A DNA stretch of 64,000 nt from Halanaerobacter jeridensis (GTDB taxonomy: Bacteria; Bacillota; Halanaerobiia; Halobacteroidales; Halobacteroidaceae), in the NCBI RefSeq assembly GCF_016908315.1, contig NZ_JAFBDQ010000005.1:1-64000 (forward strand). The letters run 5' to 3'. The stretch's first letter is position 1. Each line of letters starts with the position of its first letter. Below the pieces are notes generated by a model that ran no database searches, had not been told where the DNA came from, and saw only the letters and a program-made list of their open reading frames with translations. Position numbers and translations under genes: made by a program. Below are positions 4,141 to 53,835 of this stretch, piece by piece.

Positions 4141-4320
4141 TTTATGTCACACCTCACTATTTATAAATAAACAATCAATCAAGCGATCAATTAATTTTTT
4201 TAGTTTTTCAATACCGACAATTCAATAGTTCATAGAGCTGGAAAAAAATACAATGTCACACTTTCCTTTTCAAACTAAAAAATTGTCACTAAAATATGTA
4301 ACTAAGATTTAGCATTTCGC

Positions 4321-4449
4321 ATAACGTCCCTGGGCTTCGCGACGTCTAGGCACTGCTCCTATACTTTTGCCTATGCTCCTAAATTTCATAAGTCAGTGCT
4401 GCAACCCTGCCATATCCTCTGTGCCTAGATGTCGCTAAGCCCATGTTAT
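4321..4449. repeat. attC-like structured repeat, copy 3
   Basis: ATAACGTCCCTGGGCTTCGCGACGTCTAGG...CCTAGATGTCGCTAAGCCCATGTTAT. Confidence 0.65.
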
Positions 4450-4489
4450 CTGACGTAGCCATTGTCGAATAAAAACTACTGTACTTACA

Positions 4490-6280
4490 TCAAAAATTTT
4501 GGTTATAATTAAGATTAGGTAAGGCAATTAAACAACTTGCTTTTTTATGATATCCATAGCGATTAAGCCCCATATTAGCAAATAAAAACACATCCTTCTT
4601 GGCTCTGGTAATCCCAACATAAAAAATGCTAAGCACTTCTTCAAATTCTTCTCTTAAAGAAGACAAAAACTGGAATTTACAACATTTATCAAACTCTTCC
4701 TTCCCTTGTTTAGCACTACACAACTTGCAAAGTCCTTTTGAAGTAGGAAATGAGTATGCTGTAACTCTAGGAATGTATACATAATCCCATTCTAATCCTT
4801 TGGCACCATGTATTGTAGTTATTGTTATCCTTTCATCAATTTCATTCATTAAATGCTTTAAAGATTCATTTTCTAACACAAAAGAAATCTTTTCAAACTT
4901 TTTATTTTTTGATATATTTTCTGCTTTAGTTTTTTGAAACAATTTTTTTAATAACCTTAACAAGGAATTATATATATACATTGTATCATCTTCATATATA
5001 TCTTCAGTAAGCAATTCCTCCATTCTATCAACAACTCTACTTAGTACACGTTTTGCAATAGATTGATTGATACCACTTTCTTCCAAAAACACATCTAAAG
5101 CTTTCTCATGAAAAGCTACATATTCTCTGTCAGTATCATTGAATAATCCATTAAAATAGGAAATAGATTGTTCTTCTAATTTTTCAATTACCTCATTAGT
5201 ACAATAACTAGCTCGACACAAAATAGATACATCATCAGAATCACTAATCTTATCTTTAATATGTTCTACAATAAACTCGGCTTCTTTATGATTGCTCTTA
5301 AAAAATTTAAAATTCATTTCAGCTTCTTTATCAAAAGAATCCATCTCACTATAATTTAAAAAGATACTACGAATATAACTGTCTAATTTTTTCATCTTTT
5401 CATTATCATCAAATCTATGATTTGTTTTGAATCTCATTTCTTCCATATTAAATTCCTCAGCCATATGGTCAAACAAATCAGGAATAGCTCCAATAAAGCC
5501 ATAAATTTTCTGAATTTTATCTCCCATTAAAATAATTTCGTTTTCTCCCATTAATTTTGTAAGCAATCTATATGATAAATAATTAGTATCTTGAAATTCA
5601 TCAACAATAATCATTTTATAATATTGCTGATAAAAATTTCTAATTGATTTCTTATTTAATAAATAATAGGAAAAAAGCAATAATCCATTAAATGTAATAA
5701 CTTCATTAGGGATTAATATTTCGTTTAAAATCTCAAAATAATTGCTTTCTAACTTTTCAACATTATCAATATTTTCTTTTTCAAACCCATTAAAATTTTT
5801 AATACATTTGTCATACTCTGATAAAATGTCCATTTCCGAAGATGATAGATAATCCTTTAGCACTGCTGAATAATCGGATACTATTCTAAAAGAATCCATA
5901 GCCCCCAAATTTTTATTTAATAAATATCCATGTTTTTTTAACAAAATTCTTGCTAAATTATGATAATTTGCTACATCAAGTTTCTTGGATAAATCAACAT
6001 TTTCATCATCTAATAATTCAGGTAATAATTCATTAGTATCTTTTTTAATTTTATTAGCTGCATTTACGCTAAATGTAAGGGCTAATATTTTTTTATGATG
6101 TATTGTCGGATCTGTAACTATTTTGTAAGCAATTTTACTAATCATTGTTTTGGTTTTCCCATATCCAGCTGGAGCAGTTACAATTATTCTTTGTTTTTGA
6201 CTGAAAATAAAATCAAGTTGCTCTTCATCTTTTCCATGAATATCCTCAATTGATTTAGAAATAGCTTTTTTATTCTTCAT
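4490..6280 (-). CDS. gajB: Gabija GajB, UvrD/PcrA/Rep-like SF1 helicase
   Basis: 596 aa. Walker A TAPAGYGKTKT, motif II MIIVDEFQDTN, motif V/VI TTIHGAKGLEWDYVYIP. Overlaps upstream gajA by 11 nt. Confidence 0.75.
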   Translation of the reverse strand: MKNKKAISKSIEDIHGKDEEQLDFIFSQKQRIIVTAPAGYGKTKTMISKIAYKIVTDPTIHHKKILALTFSVNAANKIKKDTNELLPELLDDENVDLSKKLDVANYHNLARILLKKHGYLLNKNLGAMDSFRIVSDYSAVLKDYLSSSEMDILSEYDKCIKNFNGFEKENIDNVEKLESNYFEILNEILIPNEVITFNGLLLFSYYLLNKKSIRNFYQQYYKMIIVDEFQDTNYLSYRLLTKLMGENEIILMGDKIQKIYGFIGAIPDLFDHMAEEFNMEEMRFKTNHRFDDNEKMKKLDSYIRSIFLNYSEMDSFDKEAEMNFKFFKSNHKEAEFIVEHIKDKISDSDDVSILCRASYCTNEVIEKLEEQSISYFNGLFNDTDREYVAFHEKALDVFLEESGINQSIAKRVLSRVVDRMEELLTEDIYEDDTMYIYNSLLRLLKKLFQKTKAENISKNKKFEKISFVLENESLKHLMNEIDERITITTIHGAKGLEWDYVYIPRVTAYSFPTSKGLCKLCSAKQGKEEFDKCCKFQFLSSLREEFEEVLSIFYVGITRAKKDVFLFANMGLNRYGYHKKASCLIALPNLNYNQNF

Positions 6281-11705: not shown

Positions 11706-11955
11706 GTGATGCTTCTGATCGGTTAATAAAAAATAATCCCCAATAAAATTAAAACCCTCATTAAAATTTAGCATAATAATAAATACTCATATCAAACAAC
11801 TATAATTCGAATTATTTTATACTAATATTATATTCAACCTTACTTTTACTCCTCAATTTGCAACTCAACTCCTGGTATATAAACATTAATCCTTTCTATT
11901 TTAAATCTAATTCTATTTTCTAATTCTTTTTTCACAATATCTTGAATTGTTTGCC

Positions 11956-12648
11956 CTACTTTATAAACTTTTTTCTAGAATCAACAATTATATTTAAGTT
12001 AACAGTAATTCTTTCACCTTGTCTTTCAATCTCAACACCTTTAGATAAATCTTTTAAACCTAATATATCCTTAAGCGCATTCAAAAAACTACCTCCATTA
12101 GTATCTACTACCCCATCTATCTCTCTAACAACTATTCCCACTAACTCTTCTATCTTGTTATATTTTTCATCTTCAATACTAATTGAATTCAATTCAATAT
12201 TATTTTCATTTCCTAATTTATATTTAGGAAATAATCTATTACTTGGATCATCTGGTTCAGTATAATCAAATTTTTTTATATTAACTTTAACCTTGTTAAC
12301 TTCAATTCCTGTTTTATGTTTCAATCTATATTTTACAGTATCTCTTATTTCTTGGGCTACTATATTACTTTGCATTTCATCTTTTATTATTGCATTAATT
12401 TCAATAATAAATCCGTCATCAATTATTCTATATTCTATTCCCTTAGATAAATTATTTATTCCTAATAATACACGAATATCATCAAAAAAACTTCCCTGCG
12501 TATCAATTACTCCATCTATTTCTCTAACAATAACCCCAATTAAAATTTTTATTACTTCTTTAGAAATCCTAATCTTTCCTTTGTTATTTTTTTGTTCAAT
12601 ATCAATATCCTTAGATTTTTTCATAATTGTTTTGCTCTCCTTTTGCAA
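11956..12648 (-). CDS. Asp23/Gls24-family protein with two Asp23 domains; 3' end apparently frameshifted
   Basis: Two copies of VIKILIGVIVREIDGV.DT...LSKGIE. The conserved C-terminal continuation VYKVGQTIQDIVKKELENRIRFKIERINVYIPGVELQIEE* is in another frame at 11846-11958, after an A6 run. Confidence 0.65.
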   Translation of the reverse strand: MQKESKTIMKKSKDIDIEQKNNKGKIRISKEVIKILIGVIVREIDGVIDTQGSFFDDIRVLLGINNLSKGIEYRIIDDGFIIEINAIIKDEMQSNIVAQEIRDTVKYRLKHKTGIEVNKVKVNIKKFDYTEPDDPSNRLFPKYKLGNENNIELNSISIEDEKYNKIEELVGIVVREIDGVVDTNGGSFLNALKDILGLKDLSKGVEIERQGERITVNLNIIVDSRKKFIK

Positions 12649-12691
12649 TATAGATAAAAAGTTTTATAAGAAGTTTCACATAACTTATTTT

Positions 12692-12753
12692 TTAACGACA
12701 CAAAAATCATAATTTATAGTTGTTCCTTATATTTACGATGATTGTGTCGTTAA
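12692..12753 (-). promoter_or_regulatory. perfect hairpin immediately 3' of the recombinase gene (terminator and/or attI-like site)
   Basis: TTAACGACACAAAAATCAT...ATGATTGTGTCGTTAA. It contains GTCG/CGAC cores that resemble the conserved GCGACGTC/GATGTCGC boxes of the attC-like repeats. Confidence 0.35.
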
Positions 12754-22910: not shown

Positions 22911-24950
22911 TTACTCCATTATCTTTTTAATTGGAGTATTAGCTAGCCCTAGCTCTTTAGCTTTACTTAACACATGATTTAATACAGTTTTCTTAGTACC
23001 AGTGGCGTCATTCATATAATTCATAATTGCACTAGAAATAGTTAAGTTCTTAATTGCTTCTGAATCTAAATTAAAACTATCAATTAAAGATTTAACCTCT
23101 TGTTTAAACTCGTCTCTATCTCCACTGAAAAATGTATCTTTAACATCAGTTAAGACATCAGAATTATCAACTAATCTATCTACCTGTTTTCCTCTCGTAA
23201 TCGAATTAATTAAGTTATCAAAGAACATAGACTCGCCACCGACAATATCCACATTAGCATTCTGTAAGCCGTCTTTCAGGATTTCAGCCTGCGCTTGGGC
23301 AATTTGAGGTTGGATATTGATTTCGGCTAACTCTATTTCTTTATCTTTATTTAATCTCAACTTGAATTCTTCGTGTTCTTTACCAACAGAGTCTAATCGT
23401 TTCATTGCTTCCGCTTTCTTATTAATCCCCTCTGCCTCTGCTACAGCTTTGCCTTTAACTACCTCTGCTTCAGATTCTCCTGTTAACTTGATTGCTTTAG
23501 CTTCTGCTTCAGCCTGCATTTCTTTCACTTTAGCTTGAGTAGCACCTTCTTTTTCAGACGCTTCAGCTTTAGCCTTCATCACTCGAGCATCAGAAATACC
23601 TTCTACAGCAGATTCTTCGGCATTAGCATCAGCCATAATCTTAATCGATTCTGCCTTTTTGCGCGAAGTCTTTAATTCAGTATCAGCCTTAATAACCTCT
23701 TTTTCAGCTAATTCCGATTCACTTTGCTTCTCTGCTTCCGCTAATTTAATCTTTTGCAGTGCCTCTACTTCTGCATCACCTTCTGCAGTAGTAATATTCA
23801 CATCTTTAGCCCGCTTAGCTGCTGCTAATTCTTTAGTATCTTTGATCTTTTCTTCTTCCTCAGCTACCGACTTTTCCACCATCACTCGTTCGCGAATTAC
23901 TTCCTGCATATCTTTCTTTTCTTTCTCTAAGTTCTTATCTTTTTCTATTTGGGCCAAAGAAACTACCTTTTCTCGTTCCGTCTTTTCAATTTCTTGTTCC
24001 TTAGTCACCCGCTCTTCTTCCACAGCTTCAGTCGCCTCTTTAGACTTTTTGGCAACAATTATCTGACGATCCTTATTCTCTTCTGCAATTGCGATTTCTT
24101 CATCAGTTTTAATTCTCGCATTTTCAGACTTTAATCTCTCTTCTTCTTCCACAGTCTTGATTTGCGCACTTTCTCTAGACTTCATATTAGCAATTTCTCG
24201 CTTCTGTTTTTCCTCTGCTTCAGCCTGCTGGCGTTCTAATTCTAAAACTGCCTCTTTAGCACTGACATCCTGTTTGACAATTGTTTTTTCTTTGTTGCGC
24301 TGAATTTCATTTGCTTCCATAGCCTGCGTAGCAGTTAATTCTGTAATCTTTTTAATTCCTTCTGAATCAAGGACATTATTTTCATCTAAGTAATCCAATT
24401 TTGTCTGTTCTAAGTAATCAATCGCTGCATCATCTAAGACATAACCATTTAAATCAGTGCCAATCACCTGTAAAATTTCTTCTTTAAAGGTATCTCGTTC
24501 TGTATATAATTGAGTAAAATCAAACTTCTTTCCTACAGTTTTTAGAGCTTCAGAAAACTTAGCATCAAAAAATCTCATTAACGTATCCGTATCAGAAGCT
24601 TTTTTAGTCCCTAAAGACTTTGCTACCCGCAGCACATCTTCTTCAGTATGGTTAACCCGCACGAAAAAAGCTACTTTAATATCAGCTCGTAAATTATCTT
24701 TACAGACCAACCCATCTTTGCCGTCACGATGAATCTCTACTCTTTTTACTGAAACATCCATTGTCTCCCAGCGGTGCAGGATAGGAACCATCCAAGTTCC
24801 AGTGAAAGAAACTTTCGCTCCCCCAATTCCATTTCTGACAATTGCTGTTCCCTGACCTACTTTCTTGTAAAATAAGAGTAATAATAAAGGAAATCCAATA
24901 AAAACAAGAAATAAAATACCTCCTACTACATACAACACCATCTCTAACAT
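22911..24950 (-). CDS. flotillin-like SPFH/band-7 protein
   Basis: 679 aa: N-terminal TM, SPFH domain, long EA-rich coiled coil (AEAEA repeats). Confidence 0.8.
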   Translation of the reverse strand: MLEMVLYVVGGILFLVFIGFPLLLLLFYKKVGQGTAIVRNGIGGAKVSFTGTWMVPILHRWETMDVSVKRVEIHRDGKDGLVCKDNLRADIKVAFFVRVNHTEEDVLRVAKSLGTKKASDTDTLMRFFDAKFSEALKTVGKKFDFTQLYTERDTFKEEILQVIGTDLNGYVLDDAAIDYLEQTKLDYLDENNVLDSEGIKKITELTATQAMEANEIQRNKEKTIVKQDVSAKEAVLELERQQAEAEEKQKREIANMKSRESAQIKTVEEEERLKSENARIKTDEEIAIAEENKDRQIIVAKKSKEATEAVEEERVTKEQEIEKTEREKVVSLAQIEKDKNLEKEKKDMQEVIRERVMVEKSVAEEEEKIKDTKELAAAKRAKDVNITTAEGDAEVEALQKIKLAEAEKQSESELAEKEVIKADTELKTSRKKAESIKIMADANAEESAVEGISDARVMKAKAEASEKEGATQAKVKEMQAEAEAKAIKLTGESEAEVVKGKAVAEAEGINKKAEAMKRLDSVGKEHEEFKLRLNKDKEIELAEINIQPQIAQAQAEILKDGLQNANVDIVGGESMFFDNLINSITRGKQVDRLVDNSDVLTDVKDTFFSGDRDEFKQEVKSLIDSFNLDSEAIKNLTISSAIMNYMNDATGTKKTVLNHVLSKAKELGLANTPIKKIME

Positions 24951-29566: not shown

Positions 29567-29741
29567 TTTAAGAATACTTTGCCCAGGAGCAACTATTTTT
29601 ATTTGACCGCCAGTAGAACACATTAATTTAGAACCTTCCAATAAAGCAGACTGTTGACCAACTTTCACGTTTTCTTTCACCTTAGTCCATGGTGAGGGAA
29701 GACTAGGCGTACAAGAGCTTTCAGTAATTTTGCAATGACCT
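29567..29741 (-). pseudogene. C-terminal portion of the DUF4280 (PAAR-like) gene, displaced by the miniature IS element
   Basis: rc translation CKITESSCTPSLPSPWTKVKENVKVGQQSALLEGSKLMCSTGGQIKIVAPGQSILKE* matches my recollection of the DUF4280 C-terminal half. Confidence 0.5.
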
Positions 29742-30100
29742 ACTTGAAGGGCAAGCCCGTTCAGGTTTCTTCATTCATTGAAACGAGCCTAATCTAAACC
29801 TACCGAAATGGTAAGACAAATCAGGTCTTACAGTTTCTAGACCAGCCAAAAGACTGGTTGAGGCAACTTACAATGCCTCCAGAAGCTTGAATTCCCGTCA
29901 GCCCGACGGTATGTATTATATTTTAACCCTTTTCTAATTTTATAGAGCAGCTTGGTTGTCGCTTACTCTTTATCGTAGGGTTTCATTTTTTTGACTTATA
30001 TTTAGTATATCTTATTTTAGAAATAATATTCAATTATTTCTAAAATGTTGTCATTTAACCCAAAGGCAAGCCCATTAGGGTTTTCTGACAACTAATGCAA
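29742..30100 (-). mobile_element. miniature, transposase-less IS200/IS605-family derivative (LE and RE only)
   Basis: 29742-29925 is about 95% identical to the RE/omega-RNA region at 44821-45004. LE hairpin cccaaaggcaagcccattaggg at 30058-30085 is homologous to the LE at 46822-46865. Only about 130 bp of AT-rich DNA lies between them. Confidence 0.6.
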
Positions 30101-40918: not shown

Positions 40919-40950
40919 GGGATAAGTCTTTACGGCTTATCCCTTTTTTT
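40919..40950. terminator. bidirectional Rho-independent terminator
   Basis: gggataagtctttacggcttatccc followed by T7. Confidence 0.75.
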
Positions 40951-41989
40951 AACAAAGACGCGGTAATAATTGCTTTTGCAATGGCCTTAAAATTCTCGTC
41001 CCTCCTAAATTAGTTGTCAAGCAGACTCTTGATTTATCTCCTGTAACTTCTCCAATTACTGCAGTGCCTGTTCCTATAGGGCTATCTTTCATAGCATTAA
41101 CTACTGCTTCCGCTTCTTCTGCAGCAGCAACACATAACACCCGCCCTTCACTTGCTAAATAAAGTGGATCGATTCCTAAGATTCCTCCTAAGCCTTGGAC
41201 CTCTTTTTTTATCGGTAGTATTTCTTCTTCTAAATTAATCGTAACCTGCTTTTGCTGAGCTATTTCATGTAGTGCAGTAGCTAATCCACCTCGTGTTGGA
41301 TCAGTTAAAAATTTAATTCCACCACTAGAGCTTAAAATTTGAGCAGTTAAATTATTTAATAAAGCACAGTCACTCGTTAATGCACTACTCACTTCAAATT
41401 CTTCTCGGCTAGCTAAAATAGCTGCTCCATGATCACCTATAGAACCACTAATTATTATTTTATCCCCTGTTTCTATTTTAGCATCTTGTAAATTGATATC
41501 CGGGCCAACTACTCCTAATCCAGTAGTATTAATATAAATCCCTCCTCCTTTACCCTGCGGCACTACCTTAGTATCTCCTGCTGCTATCTTAACCCCTGCC
41601 TTCCGTGCAGTTTCAGCTACTGACTTAATAATACGTTTTAATTTATCTATCTCCAACCCTTCTTCCAAAATCAATCCCAAAGTTAAATATAACGGGTGCG
41701 CTCCATTCACAGCCAAATCATTAACAGTACCGCAGACAGCTAATTTACCAATATCCCCCCCAGGAAAAAAGATGGGATCAACGACAAAAGAATCTGTAGT
41801 AGTTACTAATTCCCCTTCTACTTCAGGCAAATAAGCAGCATCATCCTGCTGCAATAAGATATCATTACCGCAATAATAATAAATAATATCTTTAATTAAC
41901 TCCTGCATTAACTCCCCACCATTACCGTGGGCCAAAGTTATCGTTTTCACTTTGCTCACTCCTTTCCTAAATTCTATATAAATCTTCAC
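40949..41989 (-). CDS. hypE: hydrogenase maturation factor HypE
   Basis: AIR-synthase-related fold. N-terminal TITLAHGNGGE. C-terminal RILRPLQKQLLPRLC-type tail. Confidence 0.8.
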   Translation of the reverse strand: MKIYIEFRKGVSKVKTITLAHGNGGELMQELIKDIIYYYCGNDILLQQDDAAYLPEVEGELVTTTDSFVVDPIFFPGGDIGKLAVCGTVNDLAVNGAHPLYLTLGLILEEGLEIDKLKRIIKSVAETARKAGVKIAAGDTKVVPQGKGGGIYINTTGLGVVGPDINLQDAKIETGDKIIISGSIGDHGAAILASREEFEVSSALTSDCALLNNLTAQILSSSGGIKFLTDPTRGGLATALHEIAQQKQVTINLEEEILPIKKEVQGLGGILGIDPLYLASEGRVLCVAAAEEAEAVVNAMKDSPIGTGTAVIGEVTGDKSRVCLTTNLGGTRILRPLQKQLLPRLC

Positions 41990-42185
41990 TTTTTAGTGAA
42001 GATTTATAGTAATTAGTAACAAGTAAAGAGTGATGAGTAGAAAATCAAAAACAAAGTCAAAACCAAGTTCAAAAACTATAATCTTAGTGGTTGTGTCTTT
42101 TTTAAGATTTTGATTTTATGGTTTTGACTCATTACTGATTACTCTTTACTATAAAGTTTCATTTTCACTGAAACTTTATATAGGT
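41985..42185. repeat. hairpin-bounded AT-rich repeat element in the hypD-hypE intergenic region
   Basis: Hairpins tcttcacttttt agtgaaga (about 41985-42008) and aaagtttcattttcactgaaacttt (about 42155-42183) flank a sequence sharing CTCATTACT/TTGACTTT/CTCTTTACT motifs with 25960-26400. Confidence 0.5.
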
Positions 42186-43263
42186 ACGCCGCGCAACTCC
42201 CCTCCTGCGAGACCATACATGGGCCCAGAGGATGTGATGGAGTACATTTTGTCCCAAATAACTCACAATCAGTTGGCTTTTTTATTCCCATCAACACCTC
42301 TCCACAACTACACCCCGACTGTTTTGCTACTTTACCAGTTGCAGAAGCAAAATCAAATTTATTCTCAGCAGCAAATTCTTGATATTCCGGCCTTAATTCT
42401 AACCCTGAATTAGTTATCTTTCCCAAACCACGCCACCGACTTACAGTAGAGGTGAAAACTTGCTCCATAATCTTTAAAGCCTTTGGATTTCCTTTCTGTT
42501 CGACAACTCTAGGATAGGCATTGACTACTTTAGCTTCCTGTCTTACAATCATCTCCATAATTTGCTCTAAAGCAAAGAGAATATCACCTACTTCAAAACC
42601 AGCTACAACAGCAGGTAAATCATATTCTTTAGCCAAAAACTGAAAAGGTTCTACTCCAATGATACTAGCTACATGCCCCGGACACAAAAAGCCATCTATA
42701 TCTAAGTACTGATTTAAAACTAACTCTTCCATCACCGGCGGCATTGTTTTGAGAGCTTGTAACAAAGAATAGTTAGTCAGATTCTTTTTTTGCGCGTCTA
42801 AAATACTTAACGCAATCACAGGCGCAGTAGTTTCAAAACCAACAGCTAAAAATACAACTTCTTGTTCAGGATTATTTTCAGCAATCTTGACAGCATCTAG
42901 CGGTGAATATACTGTTTTAACATTTGGCCCCTGGGCTTGTTCTAATTCCAAAGTACTGTTACTACCCGGCACTTTTAAAAAATCAGCAAAAGTTGCTACC
43001 ATTACTCCTTCTTGCTGAGCCAAACTAATAGCAGTATCTATATAACTAAACGGCGTTACACAAATTGGGCAGCCTGGACCTGTCAATAATTCTACATTAG
43101 ACGGCAGTAGTTCCCGCAGCCCAATCTTCGAGATAGCCTGCGTATGAGTACCGCAAACTTCCATTATTTTAATCTTTCCTTTAACTACTGTGAATTCTTG
43201 CTGCAATTTTTCTAAGAGTTTACTGTTTATCTTTGCAGCCCTAAATTGTTCTAAGTAATTCAT
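42139..43263 (-). CDS. hypD: hydrogenase maturation factor HypD
   Basis: 374 aa with CGxH, GPGCPVC and CPVC motifs characteristic of HypD. Confidence 0.85.
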   Translation of the reverse strand: MNYLEQFRAAKINSKLLEKLQQEFTVVKGKIKIMEVCGTHTQAISKIGLRELLPSNVELLTGPGCPICVTPFSYIDTAISLAQQEGVMVATFADFLKVPGSNSTLELEQAQGPNVKTVYSPLDAVKIAENNPEQEVVFLAVGFETTAPVIALSILDAQKKNLTNYSLLQALKTMPPVMEELVLNQYLDIDGFLCPGHVASIIGVEPFQFLAKEYDLPAVVAGFEVGDILFALEQIMEMIVRQEAKVVNAYPRVVEQKGNPKALKIMEQVFTSTVSRWRGLGKITNSGLELRPEYQEFAAENKFDFASATGKVAKQSGCSCGEVLMGIKKPTDCELFGTKCTPSHPLGPCMVSQEGSCAAYLYKVSVKMKLYSKE

Positions 43264-43493
43264 CTTTCTTCCCCCGCATCTTGGGCCAAATCTCTAAAAG
43301 CAGCTAAAGTTTCCTGGGCTGCAGATTGATTTAACTTTTGAATCGCACATCCCGAATGAAGCAGCACATAGTCTCCTACCTCTACTTCCGAAATCAAAGT
43401 AATATTGACTGTCTTTCTAACTCCTTTTACTGCTCCTACAGCCTCTGTATCATTAACAATTTCTATAACTTTAACCGGCACAGCAATACACAT
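43260..43493 (-). CDS. hypC: hydrogenase maturation factor HypC
   Basis: 77 aa starting with MC (MCIAVPVKV...), the HypC/HupF hallmark. Confidence 0.8.
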   Translation of the reverse strand: MCIAVPVKVIEIVNDTEAVGAVKGVRKTVNITLISEVEVGDYVLLHSGCAIQKLNQSAAQETLAAFRDLAQDAGEER

Positions 43494-44233
43494 TACAAAT
43501 GACCCCTCTCTTGATAATTAGCTACTGCTAATTGTCCTACTGCTAAGCCCTCATCAGTACAAGGAATCTTATGAGGTAGATGAACTTTAAATCCCCCAGC
43601 TGTTAACTTGCGATAAACCTCAATCAATAAGATCTGATTCTGCCATACCCCTCCACTTAATACTACATGATCTAATTTGAATTGTAGTCGCAATATCTCA
43701 CATAACCTAACACTAAAATTAATCACTGTATTATGAAATTTACGAGCAATCATACCTGCATCTACTCCCGCTCTTAAATCAGCAGCAATTTCTTTTATCA
43801 AAGTGGTAATCAAAATCTGATACTGACCTGCTCTCTTGCTGATTTGATAATTATAACTATCATTATTATTAACAGTTTGAGCTGCAGTTTCTAACTTAAG
43901 AGCAGCCTGCCCTTGATAACTCCTTTTTAAACACAATCCTAATAGAGCTGCTACTGCCGCAAATAATCGTCCAAGACTAGAAGTAAGAGGACAATTAATA
44001 TCTTGTTCTAACATTTGCTCTACTGCAGCTAATTTATCAGGCTTTATTTGAGACATATTTTGAGTAAAGATTTCAGTTACTTCTATTCCCGCCTGGTGGA
44101 GATAACTAACTGCCATCCGCCATGGTTCCTTAACTGCTTGATCTCCGCCGGGTTGAGCTACATACTGCAAATGACCTACACGCATAAAATCACTATAATC
44201 ACAAATAAAAAACTCCCCCCCACAAGTGACCAT
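43493..44233 (-). pseudogene. hypF: hypF fragment (Kae1-like C-terminal domain)
   Basis: Overlaps the preceding hypF fragment in another frame. The frameshift lies in an aaaaaactcccccc homopolymer region at about 44205-44225. Confidence 0.7.
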
Positions 44234-44818
44234 CAGTTCCTAAACCTACTCCATCAAAAGCAATTCCAATCACCGGTTGTTGGAGTTGATGTTCAACCAT
44301 AGAACTGACTAAATGGGCATGATGATGCTGCACTGCTATCTTCTCACCTGGTAATTGCTGAGCATAATGAGTAGAATAATAACCCTCATGTAAATCATGA
44401 ACAATTAACTCCGGTTCTATATCATACAACTGCTCTAAATGTTCAATATTATCTTGATAACGTTGGTAAGTCTCTAAGTTACTTAGACTGCCTGTGTACT
44501 GACTTACAAAAGCAAATTCTCCTTTGCTGAGACAGAATGTATTCTTTAAATCTCCTCCACAGGCCAAAGTAGCTACCTCTGAGCTTACTTTAATCACTTG
44601 TGGTGCAAAACCACGGCCGTGTCTAATTACTCGTTCATGACCAAGGGCTACATTGGTTACTGCATCATCTACCGGCACCTCTATCTTGCGATTATGTAAT
44701 AAACAGTAGTCAGCTACTGCAGTTAATTCTTCTCCTGCTCTTTGATTAGTATATTCTAACGGTAGTCCACTTAAATTTCCACTTGTCGCTACTAATACAT
44801 CAAGTCCATGGGCCAATG
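44199..44818 (-). pseudogene. hypF: hypF fragment (YrdC-end/Kae1-like middle portion)
   Basis: ...LAHGLDVLVATSGNLSGLPLEY... The annotated N-terminus MKKPERACPSGRS is read-through from the IS right end, not hypF. Confidence 0.7.
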
Positions 44819-44820
44819 AC

Positions 44821-45050
44821 CTACCTGAAGGGCAAGCCCGTTCAGGTTTCTTCATTCATTGAAACGAGCCTAATCTGAACCTACCGTAAATGGCAAGACA
44901 AATCAGGTCTTACAGTTTCTAGACCAGCCAAAAGACTGGTTGAGGCAACTTACAACGCCTCCAGAAGCTTGATTTCCCGTCAGCCCGACGGTAAATATGT
45001 TTTTTATGAGCTTCACGAAAAGTCCGTTAGGACTTGTAGGATGTGGACTA
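44821..45050 (-). ncRNA. putative TnpB-associated omega-RNA / right-end element
   Basis: Highly conserved approximately 185-bp structured sequence immediately 3' of tnpB. It is duplicated (about 95% identity) in the tnp-less copy at 29742-29925. Confidence 0.45.
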
Positions 45051-46181
45051 ACCTGCTAACAGTTTCTTTCCTTCTTGGAGGATATTCAAACTTGCGTTAA
45101 GGTCACGATCATGTTCAGCACCACATTCACAGGTCCAGTTTCTTACAGATAGATCTTTAACATTTGGATTTTTAGTTCCACATTCGTTGCAAGTTTGAGA
45201 ACTTGCGAAAAATCTATCTACCTTTTGAATGATACAATTATACCAGTCACCTTTATATTCTAGCATATCTGTAAATTTGCCCCAAGATACATCTGTTATA
45301 TGTTTGCCAAGTTTGCTGTTTTTGACCATACCTTCAATGTTTAAGTTTTCAAGACAGATAAATTGATTTTCTTTAACTAGTCTTGTACTTAATTTATGGA
45401 GGAAATCAGTTCGTACATTTTTGATCTTTTCATGTACTTTAGCAATCTTATGTTTGAGCTTTTGCCAGTTATTAGAACCTTCTTTTTTACGAGCTAATTG
45501 TTTTTGTAATCTGGCTAGTTTATTTTCATATTTAGAAAGATGTTTAGGATTTTCTATCTTTTCGCCCTCTGATGTAATAGCAAAATCTTTGAGACCTAGA
45601 TCAATTCCTATCTGACCATCATTGGAATAATTAACTTCTACAACTTTAATTTTTTCAACATTGATAGAGATATAATACTTTCCTGTTCTTGATTTAGAGA
45701 CTGTAACATTATTTAATTTACCTCCAATATTTTCTTCACTATAATTAGAAAATTTGATCCAAGAAACTTTAGGAAGTTTGATTTTATTTCCTTTGATTTC
45801 TATACTTTCAGTTCCGCTAGATCGTTTAAAATATTCGGTACGATATGATAGTCGAGAACCTTTCTTGCTTTTGAAATTAGGGAATCCTTTATCACCGTTA
45901 AAGAAATCTTGGAAAGCTTTATCTAGATCTCTAATTGATTGCTGCAAAGCTATAGAATCAGCATTTTTAAGCCATGAAGTTTCTTCCTGATTTTTAAGTT
46001 TAGGAAGATCTTTAATATATTGAGTTTTATTTGCATAGCCATTTTGTTTAGCTTTGTCTAAAAAATAATTATATACCCATCGGCTAGACCCTATAGTTTG
46101 GTTGATTATATCTTTTTGCTTTTGATTTGGATATATCCGACATTTATATCCCCGTTCGATAGGAACAAATCGCTTAATCAT
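45048..46181 (-). CDS. tnpB: IS605-family TnpB (RuvC-like nuclease with zinc finger)
   Basis: 377 aa. C-terminal CNECGTKNPNVKDLSVRNWTCECGAEHDRDLNASLNI zinc-ribbon. RuvC-like motifs. Confidence 0.9.
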   Translation of the reverse strand: MIKRFVPIERGYKCRIYPNQKQKDIINQTIGSSRWVYNYFLDKAKQNGYANKTQYIKDLPKLKNQEETSWLKNADSIALQQSIRDLDKAFQDFFNGDKGFPNFKSKKGSRLSYRTEYFKRSSGTESIEIKGNKIKLPKVSWIKFSNYSEENIGGKLNNVTVSKSRTGKYYISINVEKIKVVEVNYSNDGQIGIDLGLKDFAITSEGEKIENPKHLSKYENKLARLQKQLARKKEGSNNWQKLKHKIAKVHEKIKNVRTDFLHKLSTRLVKENQFICLENLNIEGMVKNSKLGKHITDVSWGKFTDMLEYKGDWYNCIIQKVDRFFASSQTCNECGTKNPNVKDLSVRNWTCECGAEHDRDLNASLNILQEGKKLLAG

Positions 46182-46197
46182 AATTTGACCTCATTCC

Positions 46198-46602
46198 CTA
46201 TTTAAGGTTTTGATTTTTTATATAATTTCTAATAGTTTCAATATTAGCATTACCTACTGTATCTACAAAATATCCTTTGCTCCACAAAGAACCACAACGA
46301 TCATAAAAAATCTTTAATTTAGGATGTTCCTTGAAAAGTTTAATTGCTGATATGCTTTTAATAGTTCTTACTATATCAGTAGGAGCAACTGTGGGTCTAG
46401 CAGATACAAAAATATGAATGTGATCTGGCATTACTTCTAACTCTAATATTTTATAGTTATATCTGTTACAAATATTAATGATAATATCTTTTAAAGATAA
46501 AGCTATATCGCCATTTAAAACTTCAAATCTGAATTTAGGACACCAAACTAAATGATATTTGATGGAATATTTACAATGGTTAGTAGAATTATATTCATTC
46601 AT
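46198..46602 (-). CDS. tnpA: IS200-family TnpA (Y1 HuH transposase)
   Basis: 134 aa. HuH motif MPDHIHIFVSA. Catalytic Tyr region SKGYFV. Confidence 0.85.
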   Translation of the reverse strand: MNEYNSTNHCKYSIKYHLVWCPKFRFEVLNGDIALSLKDIIINICNRYNYKILELEVMPDHIHIFVSARPTVAPTDIVRTIKSISAIKLFKEHPKLKIFYDRCGSLWSKGYFVDTVGNANIETIRNYIKNQNLK

Positions 46603-46801
46603 TTAAATCATACTTTTCTTTGATACTTCTACGCATTAAATCTAAATAGCTTAGTGTAGTCTCTTCTTCAACTGAATAAATACTAGCTAAATTTTCTAAT
46701 TCCCGATCAAAAGGAATTGCAATATTAATTTTAGTATTATCTTTACTTGAAGACATTTTATTTGCTCCTTTAACACATATTATCCCACAATAGATTATAT
46801 A

Positions 46802-47434
46802 TTATGTGAATAGTTGTGTTCTTGACCCAAGGGCAAGCCCGTTGGGTTTTTTACACAAAAACAATAACTGTGGCCCACAATCAGGGCAGGCATTTGGCTG
46901 AGCATGAAAGCGCCTGCTAGTCGGATCTTGATATTCACTAAGGCAATCTTCACACATACTAAAATCAGACATAGTAGTTGACTCCCTGTCATATGGTATA
47001 CTCTCAATAATTGAAAAGCGTGGGCCGCAGTTCGTGCAATTAATAAACGGATATCTATATCTTCTATCATCTCCATCTAATAATTCCTCTTGGCATTGTG
47101 AACATAAAGCTGCATCTGGAGTCACAAAGGTTAACTGTTCATTATCATCTGTACTATCTTTGATTTTAAAATGTTGATAATTCGTAGATTGCAGCTGGTT
47201 GATTATTATCTCTTCTATTTGGGCCAAGGTTGGCGGATTAGATTTAATTTGATTAATCAAATTAGTTACTCCCCGCAGCGAGCCCTGCACATCAATTTCT
47301 ACCCCCTGCTGAGTATTATTAACTTCTCCTTGTACATCATAATGCTGAGCTAAATTATAAACAAAGGGTCTAAAGCCAACTCCTTGTACTATGCCCTTTA
47401 CTATCACAAACTTACGAATTACTTGCTCATTCAT
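46802..47434 (-). pseudogene. hypF: hypF N-terminal fragment (acylphosphatase plus two zinc fingers)
   Basis: KFVIVKGIVQGVGFRPFVYNLA (acylphosphatase), CSQC...CTNCGP and CEDC...CPDCGP zinc fingers. Runs into the IS left end. About 130 aa of the YrdC-like domain is missing between this and the next fragment. Confidence 0.75.
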
Positions 47435-48080
47435 TTTGCTTAATCCTTTCTTTTAAATAACTGCAAAATTCTTTTAATCCCTGCTGATTACTACAAGAAA
47501 CAGGAAACACTCTTAACTCCGGCTGCAGAGATCTCAAATCAGATTCAACTTCGGAAAGAGAAAAATTGCTCTGCTCTAATAAATCCAACTTGTTGATGAC
47601 TACTGCATCAGATTGCTGGAATAAAGCAGGATACTTAAGCGGTTTATCATTACCTTCTGGAACGCTAAGTACAGTAATTGTCATTGCCGTACCTAGAGCA
47701 AATGAAGCAGGGCAGACTAAGTTACCTACGTTTTCAATAATTAAACAATCTAACTGCTATAAATCCAATTTTTTTAATACCTGTTGAATTGATAATGCTT
47801 CTAAATGACACGCCCCCTGCGTATTAATTTGAATTACTTGACTACCATAACCCTCTAGTCGCTCGGCATCTCTTCTCGTATATAAATCCCCTTCAATTAC
47901 TGCTAGATTAATCTCTTGACCTAATTCACTTAATAAATATTCTAATAAAGTCGTCTTACCACAGCCAGGAGAACCAACTATATCAAAAGCAAAAACATCT
48001 GCTTGCTCTAAAATGCTTTTATTTTCTTGTGCCCTTTGCTCATTTTTAGCTAATAAATTTTTCTCTACTTCTACTTTCAT
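47427..48080 (-). pseudogene. hypB: hydrogenase nickel-incorporation GTPase HypB with in-frame TAG
   Basis: G1 motif VGSPGCGKTT. ...[43 protein letters not shown]... is continuous in a single frame. TAG at + strand 47757-47759. Confidence 0.7.
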
Positions 48081-48433
48081 GCTGATTCCCCCTCAATGGT
48101 ACTTAAATATAATTCATCCCCCGATAACAATTGTTGACAAAAACTATTACAATTAGGGCAATATTTATTTCGCTTCTTCACTTTAAACTGAGTCCCACAA
48201 TTTTTACACTTAGCTTGAGCCGTGACCCACTCTATCTTCAATTCAGCCTCCTCCATTCCAGTACTAGCAGCAAAAGCAGAAAAGGCAAATCTTAATGCAC
48301 TTTCTTCTATACAAGTTAGTTGGCCTATTTTTAATTCTACACTATTAATTTTTTCTAACTGCTGCTCAACTTTAGTCGCAGTTATAATTTCAAATACCCG
48401 AGCCATAATTGACATTTCATGCATCTTAATCAC
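48077..48433 (-). CDS. hypA: hydrogenase maturation factor HypA
   Basis: MHEMS start, CKNCG...CPNC zinc site. Confidence 0.8.
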   Translation of the reverse strand: MIKMHEMSIMARVFEIITATKVEQQLEKINSVELKIGQLTCIEESALRFAFSAFAASTGMEEAELKIEWVTAQAKCKNCGTQFKVKKRNKYCPNCNSFCQQLLSGDELYLSTIEGESA

Positions 48434-48502: not shown

Positions 48503-49894
48503 TCAAAACGTAACCTTTTCTTCTATCTCTCCTTCAACATTAAGCACATGAGTAGCACAGGAAATACAAGGATCAAAAGAGCGAATAATCCGTCCTAAAA
48601 TCGTAGTTAATAAATTAGCATTAGGAATTTTAGTTCCGACTAAAGCATTTTCTACTGGTTCCCGCCGGCCCAATTTATCTTTAGGAGAAAAATTCCAAAC
48701 GGTAGGCGTTATAATTTGATAACTTGATACTTCTTCTCCTTCAATTTCTGCCTGATGCAATAGCGCTCCCCGCATCGCATCAGTAGTAGCTGTGACCTTA
48801 GTCTTAACTGGCTTTTCACTTTGACTAATTGGAGGTGGACCAGGTTCTAATTGAGCCAACCATTTCTCCATTAATTCTGCAATCTGCAGTGTTTCTCGTG
48901 AGCGGGCTACAATACGATCCATAGTTGAAGTCTTTAACGGATAGTCACCTCTGATAATTGCCCGCGCTAAAGGACCAGTTTCAAAAAAATCTCCGTCATA
49001 CTACACAGATTTAGTCCAACTATAAGCTCCTGGTTTATCTGGAGCCGGCTCTAACTGACCATCTTCTTCTTCAAACCAAGAATTAGCTACTGTTTCTTCA
49101 ATTTTATCCACATCAGGCTGGGCAAACTGCCGCCCGTTAATTACTCCCCTAGGCCAAAAATCATCTTGATTCTGTTCACCAAACTTAAATAAGCCACAAG
49201 AAATTAACCGCTTAGGAGTAACCCCAATCTTAAAATAATCATTATAAACTTGGGCCAACAATTCTGTATCTGGAATCAGTTTTTCTCTAATAAATTGCAA
49301 AATATTAGCTAATAATGCTTGAGCTCGATTAATCTTATCAGCAGTAGGAGCTACTGCTACACCACCTTGCACAAAACTATGTTGATGCGGTGCTTTCCCG
49401 CCAAATAAAGCTAATATCTCATGCGCTTCCTGCGCAACCTTGACAGCATCAAAGTAATGACCTACTAAGCGCTGATTATCTTTAGGCTTCAAACGCCCAT
49501 CAACAAGATTTTGATTTTGCCACGGAGGCCGATTAGGAAACTCAACAAAATCAGGCAAGCTAAAAAAATAAAAATGGCGGATATGATTTTGTAAGAAATC
49601 AGCAACCAGCATAATATTTCTTAAATACTGAGCCCGCTGAGATAAAGTACTACCATATAACTCATCTAATAAATAACTACCCACTGCTCCATGGGCCAAA
49701 GAACAAATCCCACATACCCGCTGCGTCAGATATACAGCATCAGTTACTTTCCGGCCCTGCATAATTTTTTCATAACCTCTAAACATCGTACCTTTAGCAT
49801 TAGCCTCTTTGATCCAACCATCATCTATAACTACCTTGACTGATAGTAATCCACTTAATCGCGTAACAGGACTAAAATTAATCGTCTGACTCAT
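48503..49894 (-). pseudogene. [NiFe]-hydrogenase large subunit with in-frame TAG
   Basis: N-terminal RVCGICSLAH (RxCGxC) and C-terminal DPCISCATH (DPCxxCxxH) motifs lie in one frame. ...YSWTKSV-TAG-YDGDFFETGPLARAII... TAG at + strand 49001-49003. Confidence 0.75.
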
Positions 49895-49978: not shown

Positions 49979-50899
49979 TTATTCATTACTGTTTTCAGAT
50001 AGCGGAGTAAAAAATGGCGTCGAACCATCGGGAAAATCGGGATTAGTACAGCCGATACAAGGAGTATTAGCTTCGACTGGCCAATTAACATTAATCCACT
50101 TCCGATAAGGGCAATCTGCTCTAGTTTTAGGCCCTACACATCCTTGACTGAACATACATTCAATCTCACCTAAATTTTCAGCAAAGTTACCATTATCAAA
50201 ATAAGAGCGACGCTGACAATGGCGGTGAATAGTATAACCATAAAATAAAGTTGGTCGATTGCGGTTATCAAGTTCTGGCCGTCCATACATTAATAAATGC
50301 GCTAAAGTTCCAACAAACCAATCAGCATTCACCGGGCAACCACTGACATTAATAACTTCCCGGTCTAATACCTCACTGACTGCTACACTTTGACTGAGAT
50401 TAGGTCGAGCTGCACTAGGGCCACCGAAACTAGCACAAGTTCCTAGTGCTACTACATATTTAGCCAAGCCACCTAACCACTTTACTGCTTCTAAAGCACT
50501 AACTTCTCCTTGGGAAGTAATGAAGACAACATTGTACTCTTCTTGTAAAGGAATTGCTCCTTCTACTACTAAAGTAAATTGACCGGCTTTTTTATTAGCA
50601 GCAGCTTTGAGATTATTAACCGCATCTTGGCCCTGGGCAGCCATAAAAGTATTACTGTATAACAAATCAATTGTTTCCTCCAAAAATCGGTCTAAATAGG
50701 GATATGTTGTATTCATGATTGAAATATTATTATCACAACTACAATTTGTTTCTAACCAAATTACAGGTAATTTTTCAGTTTGAGAATCATGATAACTACT
50801 TACTTCTGCTAAGATTTTATGAGTTAAAGAACTATGCCCTTTATTACCTTGGTAAGGAGAATAATTCTGACAAAGATTGATAAACTCATTTCGCTTCAC
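49979..50899 (-). CDS. [NiFe]-hydrogenase small subunit
   Basis: Cys clusters GCPVNADWF and CIGCTNPDFPD typical of the small subunit. No Tat signal is evident. Confidence 0.8.
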   Translation of the reverse strand: MKRNEFINLCQNYSPYQGNKGHSSLTHKILAEVSSYHDSQTEKLPVIWLETNCSCDNNISIMNTTYPYLDRFLEETIDLLYSNTFMAAQGQDAVNNLKAAANKKAGQFTLVVEGAIPLQEEYNVVFITSQGEVSALEAVKWLGGLAKYVVALGTCASFGGPSAARPNLSQSVAVSEVLDREVINVSGCPVNADWFVGTLAHLLMYGRPELDNRNRPTLFYGYTIHRHCQRRSYFDNGNFAENLGEIECMFSQGCVGPKTRADCPYRKWINVNWPVEANTPCIGCTNPDFPDGSTPFFTPLSENSNE

Positions 50900-51270: not shown

Positions 51271-51747
51271 ATGGAAAAAATCAATTATAAAGTTACAATT
51301 ATAGGACTTGGTAATATCTTAATGTCAGATGATGGTTTAGGAGCAACTGTAATTAAACAATTAAAGCAAGAAACCTGGAGTAGAGAAATTTTAATTGTAG
51401 ACTGCGGTACTTGTCCCCTAGTTTATCTTGAACAATTGAGTACATCGCAGCACGTAATTGTAATTGATGCTATTAAAAAAGGTAAACCGGCTGGGACCAT
51501 TTATCACTTTAATTTAGCAAAACACAGATCAAAAAATAGACTTAAAAGAACCACTCATAATTATTCTTTACCTCAAGTTATTGCCTTAGCTCGCGAAATT
51601 AACAATTTACCTCACACAGTAATCTATTATGGCATTGAACCTGCTAATCTAAATTTAGGAACAGAACTTTCTCATCCACTAAGACAGTCTATCCCCAAAT
51701 TAATTAGACTGATTAAAAAACAAATCAATCAGTTAAGCAAAAAATAA
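51271..51747 (+). CDS. hydrogenase maturation endopeptidase (HyaD/HybD/HycI family)
   Basis: ITIIGLGNILMSDDGLGATVIKQL signature of hydrogenase maturation proteases. Confidence 0.8.
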   Translation: MEKINYKVTIIGLGNILMSDDGLGATVIKQLKQETWSREILIVDCGTCPLVYLEQLSTSQHVIVIDAIKKGKPAGTIYHFNLAKHRSKNRLKRTTHNYSLPQVIALAREINNLPHTVIYYGIEPANLNLGTELSHPLRQSIPKLIRLIKKQINQLSKK

Positions 51748-52228: not shown

Positions 52229-53416
52229 TTAATTTTCACCATCAGCCAACCATCTCTCTCCTGTTAACTTAATACCTAATGCTCCTAGAGGTGAAGTTAC
52301 TACAATCGATAAGACTGCTAATGCTAAAATTAATTCCCCCGACTCAACTCCTGCAGCTAACGGTACTGCCCCTACAGCAGCCTGTACTGTTGCTTTAGGT
52401 AGATAAGCGATCACACAAAATAATCTCTCTTTCCACTCTAAATTAGTATTAATTAATGAAATTAAAACCCCAATCGATCTAGCTAAAAGACCAACCGCAA
52501 TAATTACTAGCCCGACTAAGCCTGATTGTAAAGCCACCTCAATATTAACCTCAGCACCAATTAACACAAATAATAATAATTCAGCAAACACCCAGATTTT
52601 ATTAAACTTAGCCGCTAACCTCTGCCCTACTTCCTTATATTTTTCCATAATTACAAAACCAATTGTCATTACTCCCAATAAACTAGCAATTGATATAATT
52701 CCTTCGAGCGCTTCTTTAGATACATCCAGAAATATAGCCACACTTAAAATCAACAATACCTTTTTAGTATCACGCATATGATACTTTTTAAACAAATAAA
52801 TCAAGAATAAAGCTACCACAACTCCAATTGCTACTCCTAGGATAATTGAAATCGGAATATTTAAAAGTTTCCAAGTTAAATTAACACTCTGTCCCCCATA
52901 AAATCCTAGAAAAGTAGAAAATAGAGTAATTGCGACTATATCATCGATTGATGCTCCCGCTAAAACTAAAGTTGGAATCCCCTTAGCTGCTCCTTTACCC
53001 CGATCAATCAAATTTAACATTTGAGGAACTATTACAGCAGGAGATACAGCAGCAATAATAAAAGCTAAAATTCCTGCTTCAATTAACGAGATATCTAATA
53101 AATAATTAGCCACAAACAAAATCGTAAAACCTTCCATTAGCCCCGGAATAAAACTCATCTTAACTGCAGGAACTCCTATTTTCTTTAGCGTTTCTTTCTT
53201 TAAGCCTAGTCCGGCTCGAATTAAAATAATAATCAAGGCTATTTTTCTTAAATCCGGCGAAACCTGCAGTAATTCTTGACTCATTACATCAAAACCATAC
53301 GGACCAATTGCTACTCCCAAAATCAACATTCCTAATAACCCTGGTAAACTAACATGGTCAAAAGCCTTATTAAGTATTAGACCAAACAAAATTATAATTG
53401 CTAAACTTAACGCCAT
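52229..53416 (-). CDS. cation:proton antiporter family membrane protein
   Basis: 395 aa, about 11 TM segments. Resembles CPA-type Na+(K+)/H+ exchangers. Confidence 0.55.
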   Translation of the reverse strand: MALSLAIIILFGLILNKAFDHVSLPGLLGMLILGVAIGPYGFDVMSQELLQVSPDLRKIALIIILIRAGLGLKKETLKKIGVPAVKMSFIPGLMEGFTILFVANYLLDISLIEAGILAFIIAAVSPAVIVPQMLNLIDRGKGAAKGIPTLVLAGASIDDIVAITLFSTFLGFYGGQSVNLTWKLLNIPISIILGVAIGVVVALFLIYLFKKYHMRDTKKVLLILSVAIFLDVSKEALEGIISIASLLGVMTIGFVIMEKYKEVGQRLAAKFNKIWVFAELLLFVLIGAEVNIEVALQSGLVGLVIIAVGLLARSIGVLISLINTNLEWKERLFCVIAYLPKATVQAAVGAVPLAAGVESGELILALAVLSIVVTSPLGALGIKLTGERWLADGEN

Positions 53417-53835
53417 TTTTTATCCCACTCCCTTTTCTATATAAGTAAGACAGTTAAAGTTAAAAGAATCTTTGCTAAAGATATTTTCTTTTAAAAGAGA
53501 ATATCTCTATAAGACCATTCCTGCCCCACACTATTAAAGTAAGATTACCTTAGATGTAGATGAAATTTTTTCGCAGCGACTTTAAATCTAGTTTGCAATA
53601 AGTCTTAACGCAGAATAATAAAAAATCATTTTATCTACATCTGGAAAGCTACACTTTATATAAAAAAGACCCCTACTCGCTGAGAAGATAAAGTAATCCC
53701 CAAGCAAGTAGGAGCCATCAATTGCTATATTTAGCAATAGTTAAAGGCGAGCTCCATCGCCTACCATTTAATTTTAGCAGATTAATTATAAGATTGCAAT
53801 CAAAATTTGTAGACTAATTATTTTACTGCCTTTTT

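Follow-up and report, generated by a model that had tools for sequence, protein, structure and literature searches.

In the 64,000-nucleotide stretch of Halanaerobacter jeridensis DNA analysed here (contig NZ_JAFBDQ010000005.1, positions 1 to 64,000; hereafter the window), the minus strand between 40.9 and 50.9 kb carries a [NiFe]-hydrogenase operon that comprises the small subunit, the large subunit, hypA, hypB, hypF, hypC, hypD and hypE. Within this operon hypF is split by an insertion sequence (IS) of the IS605 family. Host DNA is missing next to this IS and also next to a small gene-less derivative of the same family elsewhere in the window. The pseudogene itself is ordinary; what the locus adds is a deletion from motif to motif at both elements.

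The reference for what has been lost is the metagenomic contig L001, whose intact HypF of 758 aa (P0001) was retrieved by a search with the joined fragments and is 97 % identical. Three more intact 758-aa HypF proteins belong to the 90 %-identity cluster of P0001, and altogether hypF is undamaged in four metagenomic relatives, at 97 % identity. Gene order on L001 is that of the window, running from the large subunit through hypA, hypB (217 aa, intact) and hypF to hypC; neither hypA nor hypB nor what is visible of the large subunit is broken there. Positions 1-3055 of L001 align without a gap to window positions 49914-46860, and positions 3431-5041 align to 44817-43209 with one gap. Over the 3,051 nt upstream of the IS there are no indels. 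At the DNA level this relative is 98 % identical. Missing from the window are positions 3052-3432 of L001, i.e., 381 bp or 127 codons (191-317) that make up most of the YrdC-like domain.

A first-pass annotation, made from the letters alone, had already described hypF as disrupted by a full IS200/IS605 element with a loss of about 130 codons, the acylphosphatase and zinc-finger N-terminus lying on one side and a TSGNLSG/Kae1-like remainder on the other. Pfam bears this out, since HypF domains flank tnpA and tnpB (Table 1). The open reading frame (ORF) at 46802-47434 contains the acylphosphatase domain and two HypF zinc fingers, its last 20 residues being read-through into the left end of the IS. 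On the other side, the ORF at 44199-44855 retains only the tail of the YrdC-like domain, 69 of 178 profile positions (110-178), followed by the first Kae1-like domain, and the ORF at 43493-44233 holds the second Kae1-like subdomain.

Table 1. Coordinates of the features discussed, in window numbering
Feature	Position	Strand	Basis or remark
Gene-less derivative (PATE), 365 bp, same IS family	29735..30099	-	left-end hairpin 30059-30080, right-end hairpin 29743-29765
hypE	40949-41989	-	
hypD	42139-43263	-	
hypC	43260-43493	-	
hypF 3' fragment, shifted frame	43493..44212	-	second Kae1-like subdomain; Pfam HypF_C_2 4.3e-73
2-bp (GA/AG) deletion, shifts hypF frame	44213..44214	-	global alignment to L001
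hypF middle fragment	44215..44815	-	codon 318 onward; YrdC-like tail (TSGNLSG) and first Kae1-like domain
Predicted 16-nt omega-RNA guide	44800..44815	-	TGGCCCATGGACTTGA; position by analogy with ISDra2
IS605-family insertion sequence, 2,048 bp	44816..46863	-	start TGTTTTTG..., end ...GGTCAT
End motif GTCAT, transposon-encoded	44816-44820	-	
Right end and predicted omega-RNA scaffold, 232 nt 3' of tnpB	44816..45047	-	6-copy alignment, fold
Right-end hairpin	44824-44846	-	CCTGAAcGGGCttGCCCTTCAGG; GAAA 5' of foot; cleavage point 8 nt 3'
tnpB, RNA-guided nuclease, 377 aa	45048..46181	-	Pfam HTH_OrfB_IS605, OrfB_IS605, Cas12f1-like_TNB
tnpA, Y1 HUH transposase, 134 aa	46198..46602	-	Pfam Y1_Tnp 1.5e-40
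53-aa ORF overlapping tnpA start, candidate Arc-like ribbon-helix-helix repressor	46595..46756	-	MBM7556340.1, annotated hypothetical
Left-end subterminal imperfect hairpin	46826..46846	-	CCCAAcGGGCttGCCCTTGGG; foot 17 nt from cleavage point
hypF 5' fragment	46864..47434	-	codons 1-190 and first base of codon 191; Pfam, L001 identity
Premature TAG in hypB, E108	47757..47759	-	GAA in intact allele; two base changes in one codon
hypA	48077-48433	-	
Premature TAG in [NiFe]-hydrogenase large subunit, Q304	49001..49003	-	CAG in intact allele
Small subunit	49979-50899	-	
HycI-type maturation protease	51271-51747		divergent from operon

The 5' fragment of hypF matches L001 without gaps up to ...CAGTTAT, and its last five bases (46868-46864) are the target motif GTTAT (TAM) of the element. 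Host sequence thus stops at 46864 and restarts at 44815. With these boundaries the two flanks are in frame: the T at 46864 and the TG at 44815-44814 form a Leu codon, and excision of the IS in silico reads ...NACPDCGPQL-L-AHGLDVLVATSGNL... (...CGPQL-L-AHGLDV...). The junctions had earlier been taken to be out of frame because GTTAT was assigned to the IS. A second frameshift, also noticed in the first pass, is real, but it does not lie in a homopolymer as proposed. It is a 2-bp loss (GAGAG to GAG, i.e., (AG)2 to (AG)1) directly after a run of seven G (44215-44221) whose length is the same in the intact allele, and because of it the excised reading frame runs into a stop at codon 395.

In a functional HypF all domains are contiguous in one frame; here the YrdC-like domain is partial, the gene is split by the IS and the frame is shifted by 2 bp. 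As read from its sequence, hypF is a pseudogene broken by a complete IS200/IS605 element of the IS605 type. Its pieces are listed in GenBank as separate proteins, MBM7556341.1 ('acylphosphatase') and MBM7556337.1 ('Sua5/YciO/YrdC/YwlC family protein'), labels that mislead users of the annotation. Both, as well as MBM7556340.1 from within the IS, match H. jeridensis proteins exactly. That the locus is a redundant decayed duplicate, with an intact hypF or a second hyp set elsewhere maturing other hydrogenases, is unlikely: the fragments keep their syntenic place in one complete operon, whose gene order is identical to that of the intact metagenomic relative, and no second H. jeridensis HypF occurs among the 120 best HypF matches.

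Ends, target motif and coding content of the element

The boundaries of the IS were set by comparing copies, namely the window IS, the 365-bp gene-less copy, contigs with TnpB proteins 94 %, 82 % and 72 % identical (the 72 % protein being from Acetohalobium arabaticum, whose genome is finished), four contigs with identical TnpA and two metagenomic right ends, the only further ones that a metagenome scan yielded. No match to the right-end patterns was found in the species-representative genome collection. A check of target-site preference on other copies had been suggested in the first pass. The left end can be read in eight copies (the window IS, the PATE, L002, L003, L006 and L011-L013); in every one of them GTTAT lies directly 5' of it, and the flanks farther upstream are unrelated. 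Intact hypF reads CCACAGTTAT/GG at the left junction (the slash marks the boundary), so the motif is present there without an IS. Since the intact allele and all left-end copies carry GTTAT at this place, the motif is assigned to the host target DNA and not to the IS. The left junction is CACAGTTAT/TG, and the boundary proposed earlier (CACA/GTTATTG) was misplaced by 5 nt; the right junction, GGTCAT/TG, stands as first read.

All six right ends compared terminate in GTCAT, after which the next bases differ (TG, TG, TA, GA, AG, AA). A right end finishing in ...CATTG was favoured at first, as it restores the DUF4280 frame across the PATE. It was rejected because L003, L006, L007 and L008 continue with GA, TA, AG and AA after GTCAT; the frame problem at the PATE is explained by a loss of 40 bp of host DNA (see below) and not by such an end.

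The IS has no terminal inverted repeats. It lies 3' of a fixed motif without a target duplication, as is typical of the IS605 group, and both ends carry the subterminal palindromes of this group in the form of near-identical bulged hairpins arranged as direct repeats. In the relatives the right-end hairpin shows compensatory changes. The rule by which IS608 pairs guides with cleavage sites is reportedly based in part on the structure of Barabas 2008. According to this pattern (PMC3201880), the AAAA directly 5' of the left hairpin foot, the candidate guide GL, would pair with TTAT, and the GAAA at the right end would pair with TCAT.

TnpA keeps both hallmarks of a Y1 HUH transposase, the HUH motif (DHIHIF) and the C-terminal Tyr (RNYIKNQ), and matches solved TnpA structures, including those of IS608 and ISDra2, end to end. 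In TnpB, the RuvC motifs GIDLG, LENLN and HDRDLNAS, which hold the D-E-D triad, and the zinc ribbon are intact. The protein matches ISDra2 TnpB (8bf8) over its full length with an E-value of 2.8e-85, and its motifs stand in the same local contexts as in the top aligned chain, 9yyg, a designed homologue. Both proteins appear catalytically intact. Judging by these features, the element is a new member of the IS605 group that uses GTTAT as TAM, ends in GTCAT and encodes an ISDra2-like TnpB.

The small ORF that overlaps the start of tnpA is conserved in place in L011, L014 and L007; in L002 its homologue is broken. It gives no Pfam match even at E = 10 and no significant Foldseek match, and the AlphaFold2 model (pLDDT 69) has an N-terminal strand-like segment followed by two helices. 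Since Arc genes have recently been described in IS605 elements (bioRxiv 10.64898/2026.09.24.754181), and position and size fit by analogy, the ORF possibly encodes an Arc-like repressor of the element.

Between the left-end hairpin and this ORF (around 46805-46815, minus strand) the window IS is without a near-perfect palindrome of about 35 nt, CTAAAAAATAATTCAATATTATTTTTTAG, which is present at the matching position in L011, L002 and the PATE. Short CAAC repeats bound the gap in the window copy. The missing palindrome might serve as an operator, or else as a terminator. A 92 %-identical metagenomic copy (L007, reverse complement, 1-140) has no recognisable left-end hairpin, and its sequence upstream of the small ORF is unrelated; for these reasons it is probably immobile.

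The region 3' of tnpB had been expected to be the omega-RNA and right end, and the alignment agrees with this. The core (44816-44993) is conserved and also carried by the PATE, whose 178-nt omega-RNA/right-end region is 96.6 % identical to that of the full element. The minimum free energy of the region is -87.2 kcal/mol (z -4.39 against shuffled controls), and the consensus fold of six copies contains nine compensated pairs spread over several stems. No Rfam family matches it at gathering or permissive thresholds. We predict that these 232 nt form the omega-RNA scaffold. In ISDra2 the guide comes from the first ~16 nt of flanking DNA (PMC8612924); by analogy, the guide at hypF would be the sequence given in Table 1, and that of the PATE is predicted to be TGCAAAATTACTGAAA.

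Host DNA missing between target motifs

Intact hypF contains GTTAT eight times on the sense strand in 2,277 nt (about 1 per 285 nt) and not at all on the antisense strand. The first two copies lie at positions 3047 and 3428 of L001, with none between. In the window the left flank of the IS stops with the first of these motifs, and the right flank, TGGCCCATGG..., opens with precisely the bases that come after the second (3428-3432). The 381-bp loss thus spans from the first to the second GTTAT, and one copy of the motif is kept. It follows that the predicted guide at the right end is equal to the hypF sequence directly after the second GTTAT of the intact allele.

The PATE shows the same arrangement. 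It has both hairpin ends and no gene, with GTTAT at its left and GTCAT at its end; in the ORF list (minimum 50 aa) no ORF lies wholly inside it, and only the read-through tail of a host ORF enters the left end. The gene that it interrupts encodes a DUF4280 (PAAR-like) protein and lies downstream of a 1,372-aa ORF; in GenBank the truncated ORF of 269 aa is a hypothetical protein. DUF4280 orthologues read ...GNLIANIMDYQAMTNVQTFGYCKI..., and MDYQAMTNVQTFGY is absent from the window. The orthologue in L015 has AAT ATT AT/G GAT ... TTT GGT TAT/TGT AAG, in comparison with AAT GTT AT / element / TGC AAA ATT in the window. At this site 40 nt of host DNA have been lost between two (G/A)TTAT sites.

The chance that a deletion ends exactly after GTTAT is ~0.0035 per case and ~1e-5 for both. 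Because the far end lies at GTTAT both times, we attribute the deletions to the transposon system; in so far as sequence comparison can tell, they were probably made by it and not by random decay. One alternative is replication slippage between GTTAT direct repeats, independent of the transposase and abutting the element by chance. Both deletions bear its classic signature, being bounded by a 5-nt direct repeat of which one copy is kept, and any deletion in hypF would be neutral once the gene was broken. However, the repeat is the element's own target motif both times and one end lies exactly at the IS boundary, even though a 2.3-kb gene holds thousands of other 5-nt repeat pairs. Slippage over 381 bp on 5 nt is moreover very rare, and for it to have happened twice, at two elements, is not credible given the chance of ~1e-5. 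We consider this explanation very unlikely.

The same low probability is assigned to an assembly artefact, in which tandem copies of the element sit at both GTTAT sites, separated by the 381-bp (or 40-bp) spacer, and have been collapsed by a short-read assembler. Reads would then contain junctions between the right end and GGTTGATC, or of the form ...TTTGTTAT/TGTTTTTG. An independent k-mer assembly of SRR18704483 does break, in L009 at 29 nt short of the right-end tip and in L010 within the IS, but this indicates that the tip is repeated elsewhere in the genome with a different flank, and no more than that. The window runs continuously through the IS and is reported within a 257-kb contig, and assemblers are expected to break at repeats or to traverse simple loops, not to drop a loop. 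In addition, a double tandem insertion at two loci is itself unlikely, and the protein cluster contains no H. jeridensis HypF fragment covering residues 191-317, which is weak evidence.

How the transposon system would produce such deletions can be envisaged in three ways, each starting from an insertion 3' of GTTAT in hypF, as IS608 inserts at TTAC. In the first (a), which receives the largest of our rough relative weights, a little under half, a TnpA dimer bound to both hairpins would re-cleave the right end after insertion. This end would be moved to the next GTTAT on the same single strand, recognised by the left-end guide, and the intervening DNA would leave as a circle; the chemistry is that of integration, carried out in cis as an 'adjacent deletion'. 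Another possibility (c), weighted at somewhat less than a third, is that two independent insertions in tandem were collapsed by homologous recombination. The remaining one (b), with about a quarter, would consist of a local hop to the neighbouring GTTAT and a TnpB cut at the vacated site, after which repair anneals the two IS copies. That IS605-family elements can delete host DNA from their end to the next TAM on the same strand in one transposon-driven reaction, be it TnpA transfer in cis or repair of a TnpB break after a local hop, is put forward tentatively, with a confidence that falls short of an even balance.

Several points weigh against our interpretation. There are only two cases, from one genome that was probably assembled from short reads. 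Since TG begins both window elements and both right flanks, each boundary has a 2-nt ambiguity that only the other copies resolve. The reference orthologues for the PATE are just 78-79 % identical, and one of them has GCTAT at the second site. For route (a) we found no experimental precedent in the literature, and the three routes yield identical products that are inseparable from sequence. Nevertheless, a dead hypF, an IS605 insertion and deletions made by the transposon system are the best overall explanation, and one that we regard as likely.

A further copy and the distribution of the motif are recorded here as separate observations. The flanks of an 82 %-related copy (L006, 1-260 and 1690-1736), when joined, read …GTT GGA AAT GTT AT + T ATT ACC…, with a stop after seven codons in this frame and the other two flank frames open. 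This might be a third flank deletion, judged on just 36 nt of flank. In the whole window the minus strand, G-rich here, has 122 copies of GTTAT, twice as many as the plus strand (57). The minus strand is also the active strand of both elements, which would fit insertion into the lagging-strand template but is confounded by coding-strand composition.

Decay of the surrounding operon

The lesions are not confined to hypF. Premature TAG codons interrupt hypB and the large subunit (Table 1), so that, counting the IS with its deletion, the operon contains at least four independent inactivating lesions. In comparison with L001, non-synonymous changes account for 11 of the 20 large-subunit differences and for 13 of the 21 in the 3' part of hypF, an excess that fits relaxed selection. 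Taken with the 2-bp hypF frameshift, the two TAG codons indicate that the whole operon is no longer under selection. They also make it less important whether an intact hypF exists elsewhere. As this is the only such operon visible in the window, the strain has most likely lost this [NiFe]-hydrogenase.

Acetohalobium arabaticum, from the same order, reportedly decodes TAG conditionally, as described by Prat et al. in 2012. That the two premature stops, both of which are TAG, are read through, e.g., as pyrrolysine, and that only hypF is broken, is the least probable alternative of all: TAG terminates 10 of the 38 long window ORFs, the two sites encode ordinary Gln and Glu in the intact allele, no pyl genes were seen, and the non-synonymous excess fits relaxed selection.

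Elsewhere in the window, two pairs of same-frame ORFs one stop apart (23020-24303 and 11924-12712) were considered and discarded, as they have no Pfam matches and look spurious. A fluoride riboswitch (53702-53770, minus strand; Rfam RF01734, 48.7 bits) lies upstream of a gene of the Na+/H+-exchanger family (52229-53416).

Comparison with known systems

The closest paradigm for the organisation of the element is IS608 (ISHp608) of Helicobacter pylori. Both combine a Y1 HUH TnpA with TnpB, have subterminal imperfect hairpins instead of inverted repeats, and insert 3' of a short fixed motif without duplication. On the left, cleavage falls 17-20 nt 5' of the hairpin here, as against 19 nt in IS608; on the right, it falls 8 nt 3' of the hairpin, as against 10 nt. 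In both, the cleavage sites and the guide tetranucleotides 5' of the hairpin feet change together (PMC3201880), with (G)TTAT as target and (G)TCAT as end here, whereas IS608 uses TTAC and TCAA. Two features set the H. jeridensis element apart: an additional small ORF upstream of tnpA, and the loss of host DNA between two target motifs, of which no description was found for IS608.

With respect to TnpB, the likeness is to ISDra2 of Deinococcus radiodurans, which has a full-length homologue (8bf8) and a structured RNA region spanning the 3' end of tnpB and the right end, as is predicted for the present element. ISDra2, however, uses the pentanucleotide TTGAT, and its RNA has been shown experimentally, while here the RNA is predicted from conservation, covariation and folding energy. 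With this element, a new TAM (GTTAT), a new end motif (GTCAT) and a new omega-RNA are predicted for an ISDra2-like TnpB. The gene-less copy at 29735-30099 resembles the PATEs and other non-autonomous IS605 derivatives bearing an omega-RNA in Geobacillus stearothermophilus and Halanaerobium hydrogeniformans (PMC10055086, PMC7290912) in that both ends and an omega-RNA scaffold are present while genes are lacking. It differs from these in representing a new sequence family in a different genus, and in the 40-bp flanking loss.

The losses bounded by the target motif, found at two of two elements in the window, are less easily accommodated. By the usual description, IS200/IS605 elements insert with neither donor nor target gaining or losing DNA. 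No earlier account of such elements deleting DNA from motif to motif turned up in the literature, our coverage of which is incomplete and does not prove novelty. If the observation is general, it would suggest that TnpA, alone or with TnpB, carries out a side reaction not yet described, and would predict circles of the spacer as well as joints that link the right end to the flank downstream. The 'peel-and-paste' elements would then give rise to precise deletions bounded by motifs in bacterial genomes, and many genes disrupted by IS605 elements would be unrepairable even after precise excision.

Comparable outcomes are known from other transposons. Intramolecular transposition of the IS1/IS903 type removes host DNA next to one transposon end (adjacent deletions), and one-ended transposition of IS91 mobilises adjacent DNA, ending at target-like tetranucleotides. 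These systems rely on DDE or Y2 rolling-circle chemistry and on other substrates, and their Y1 'peel-and-paste' equivalent is here only inferred. What the H. jeridensis elements appear to have in common with them is that adjacent host DNA is removed or mobilised up to a target-like site recognised by the transposase.

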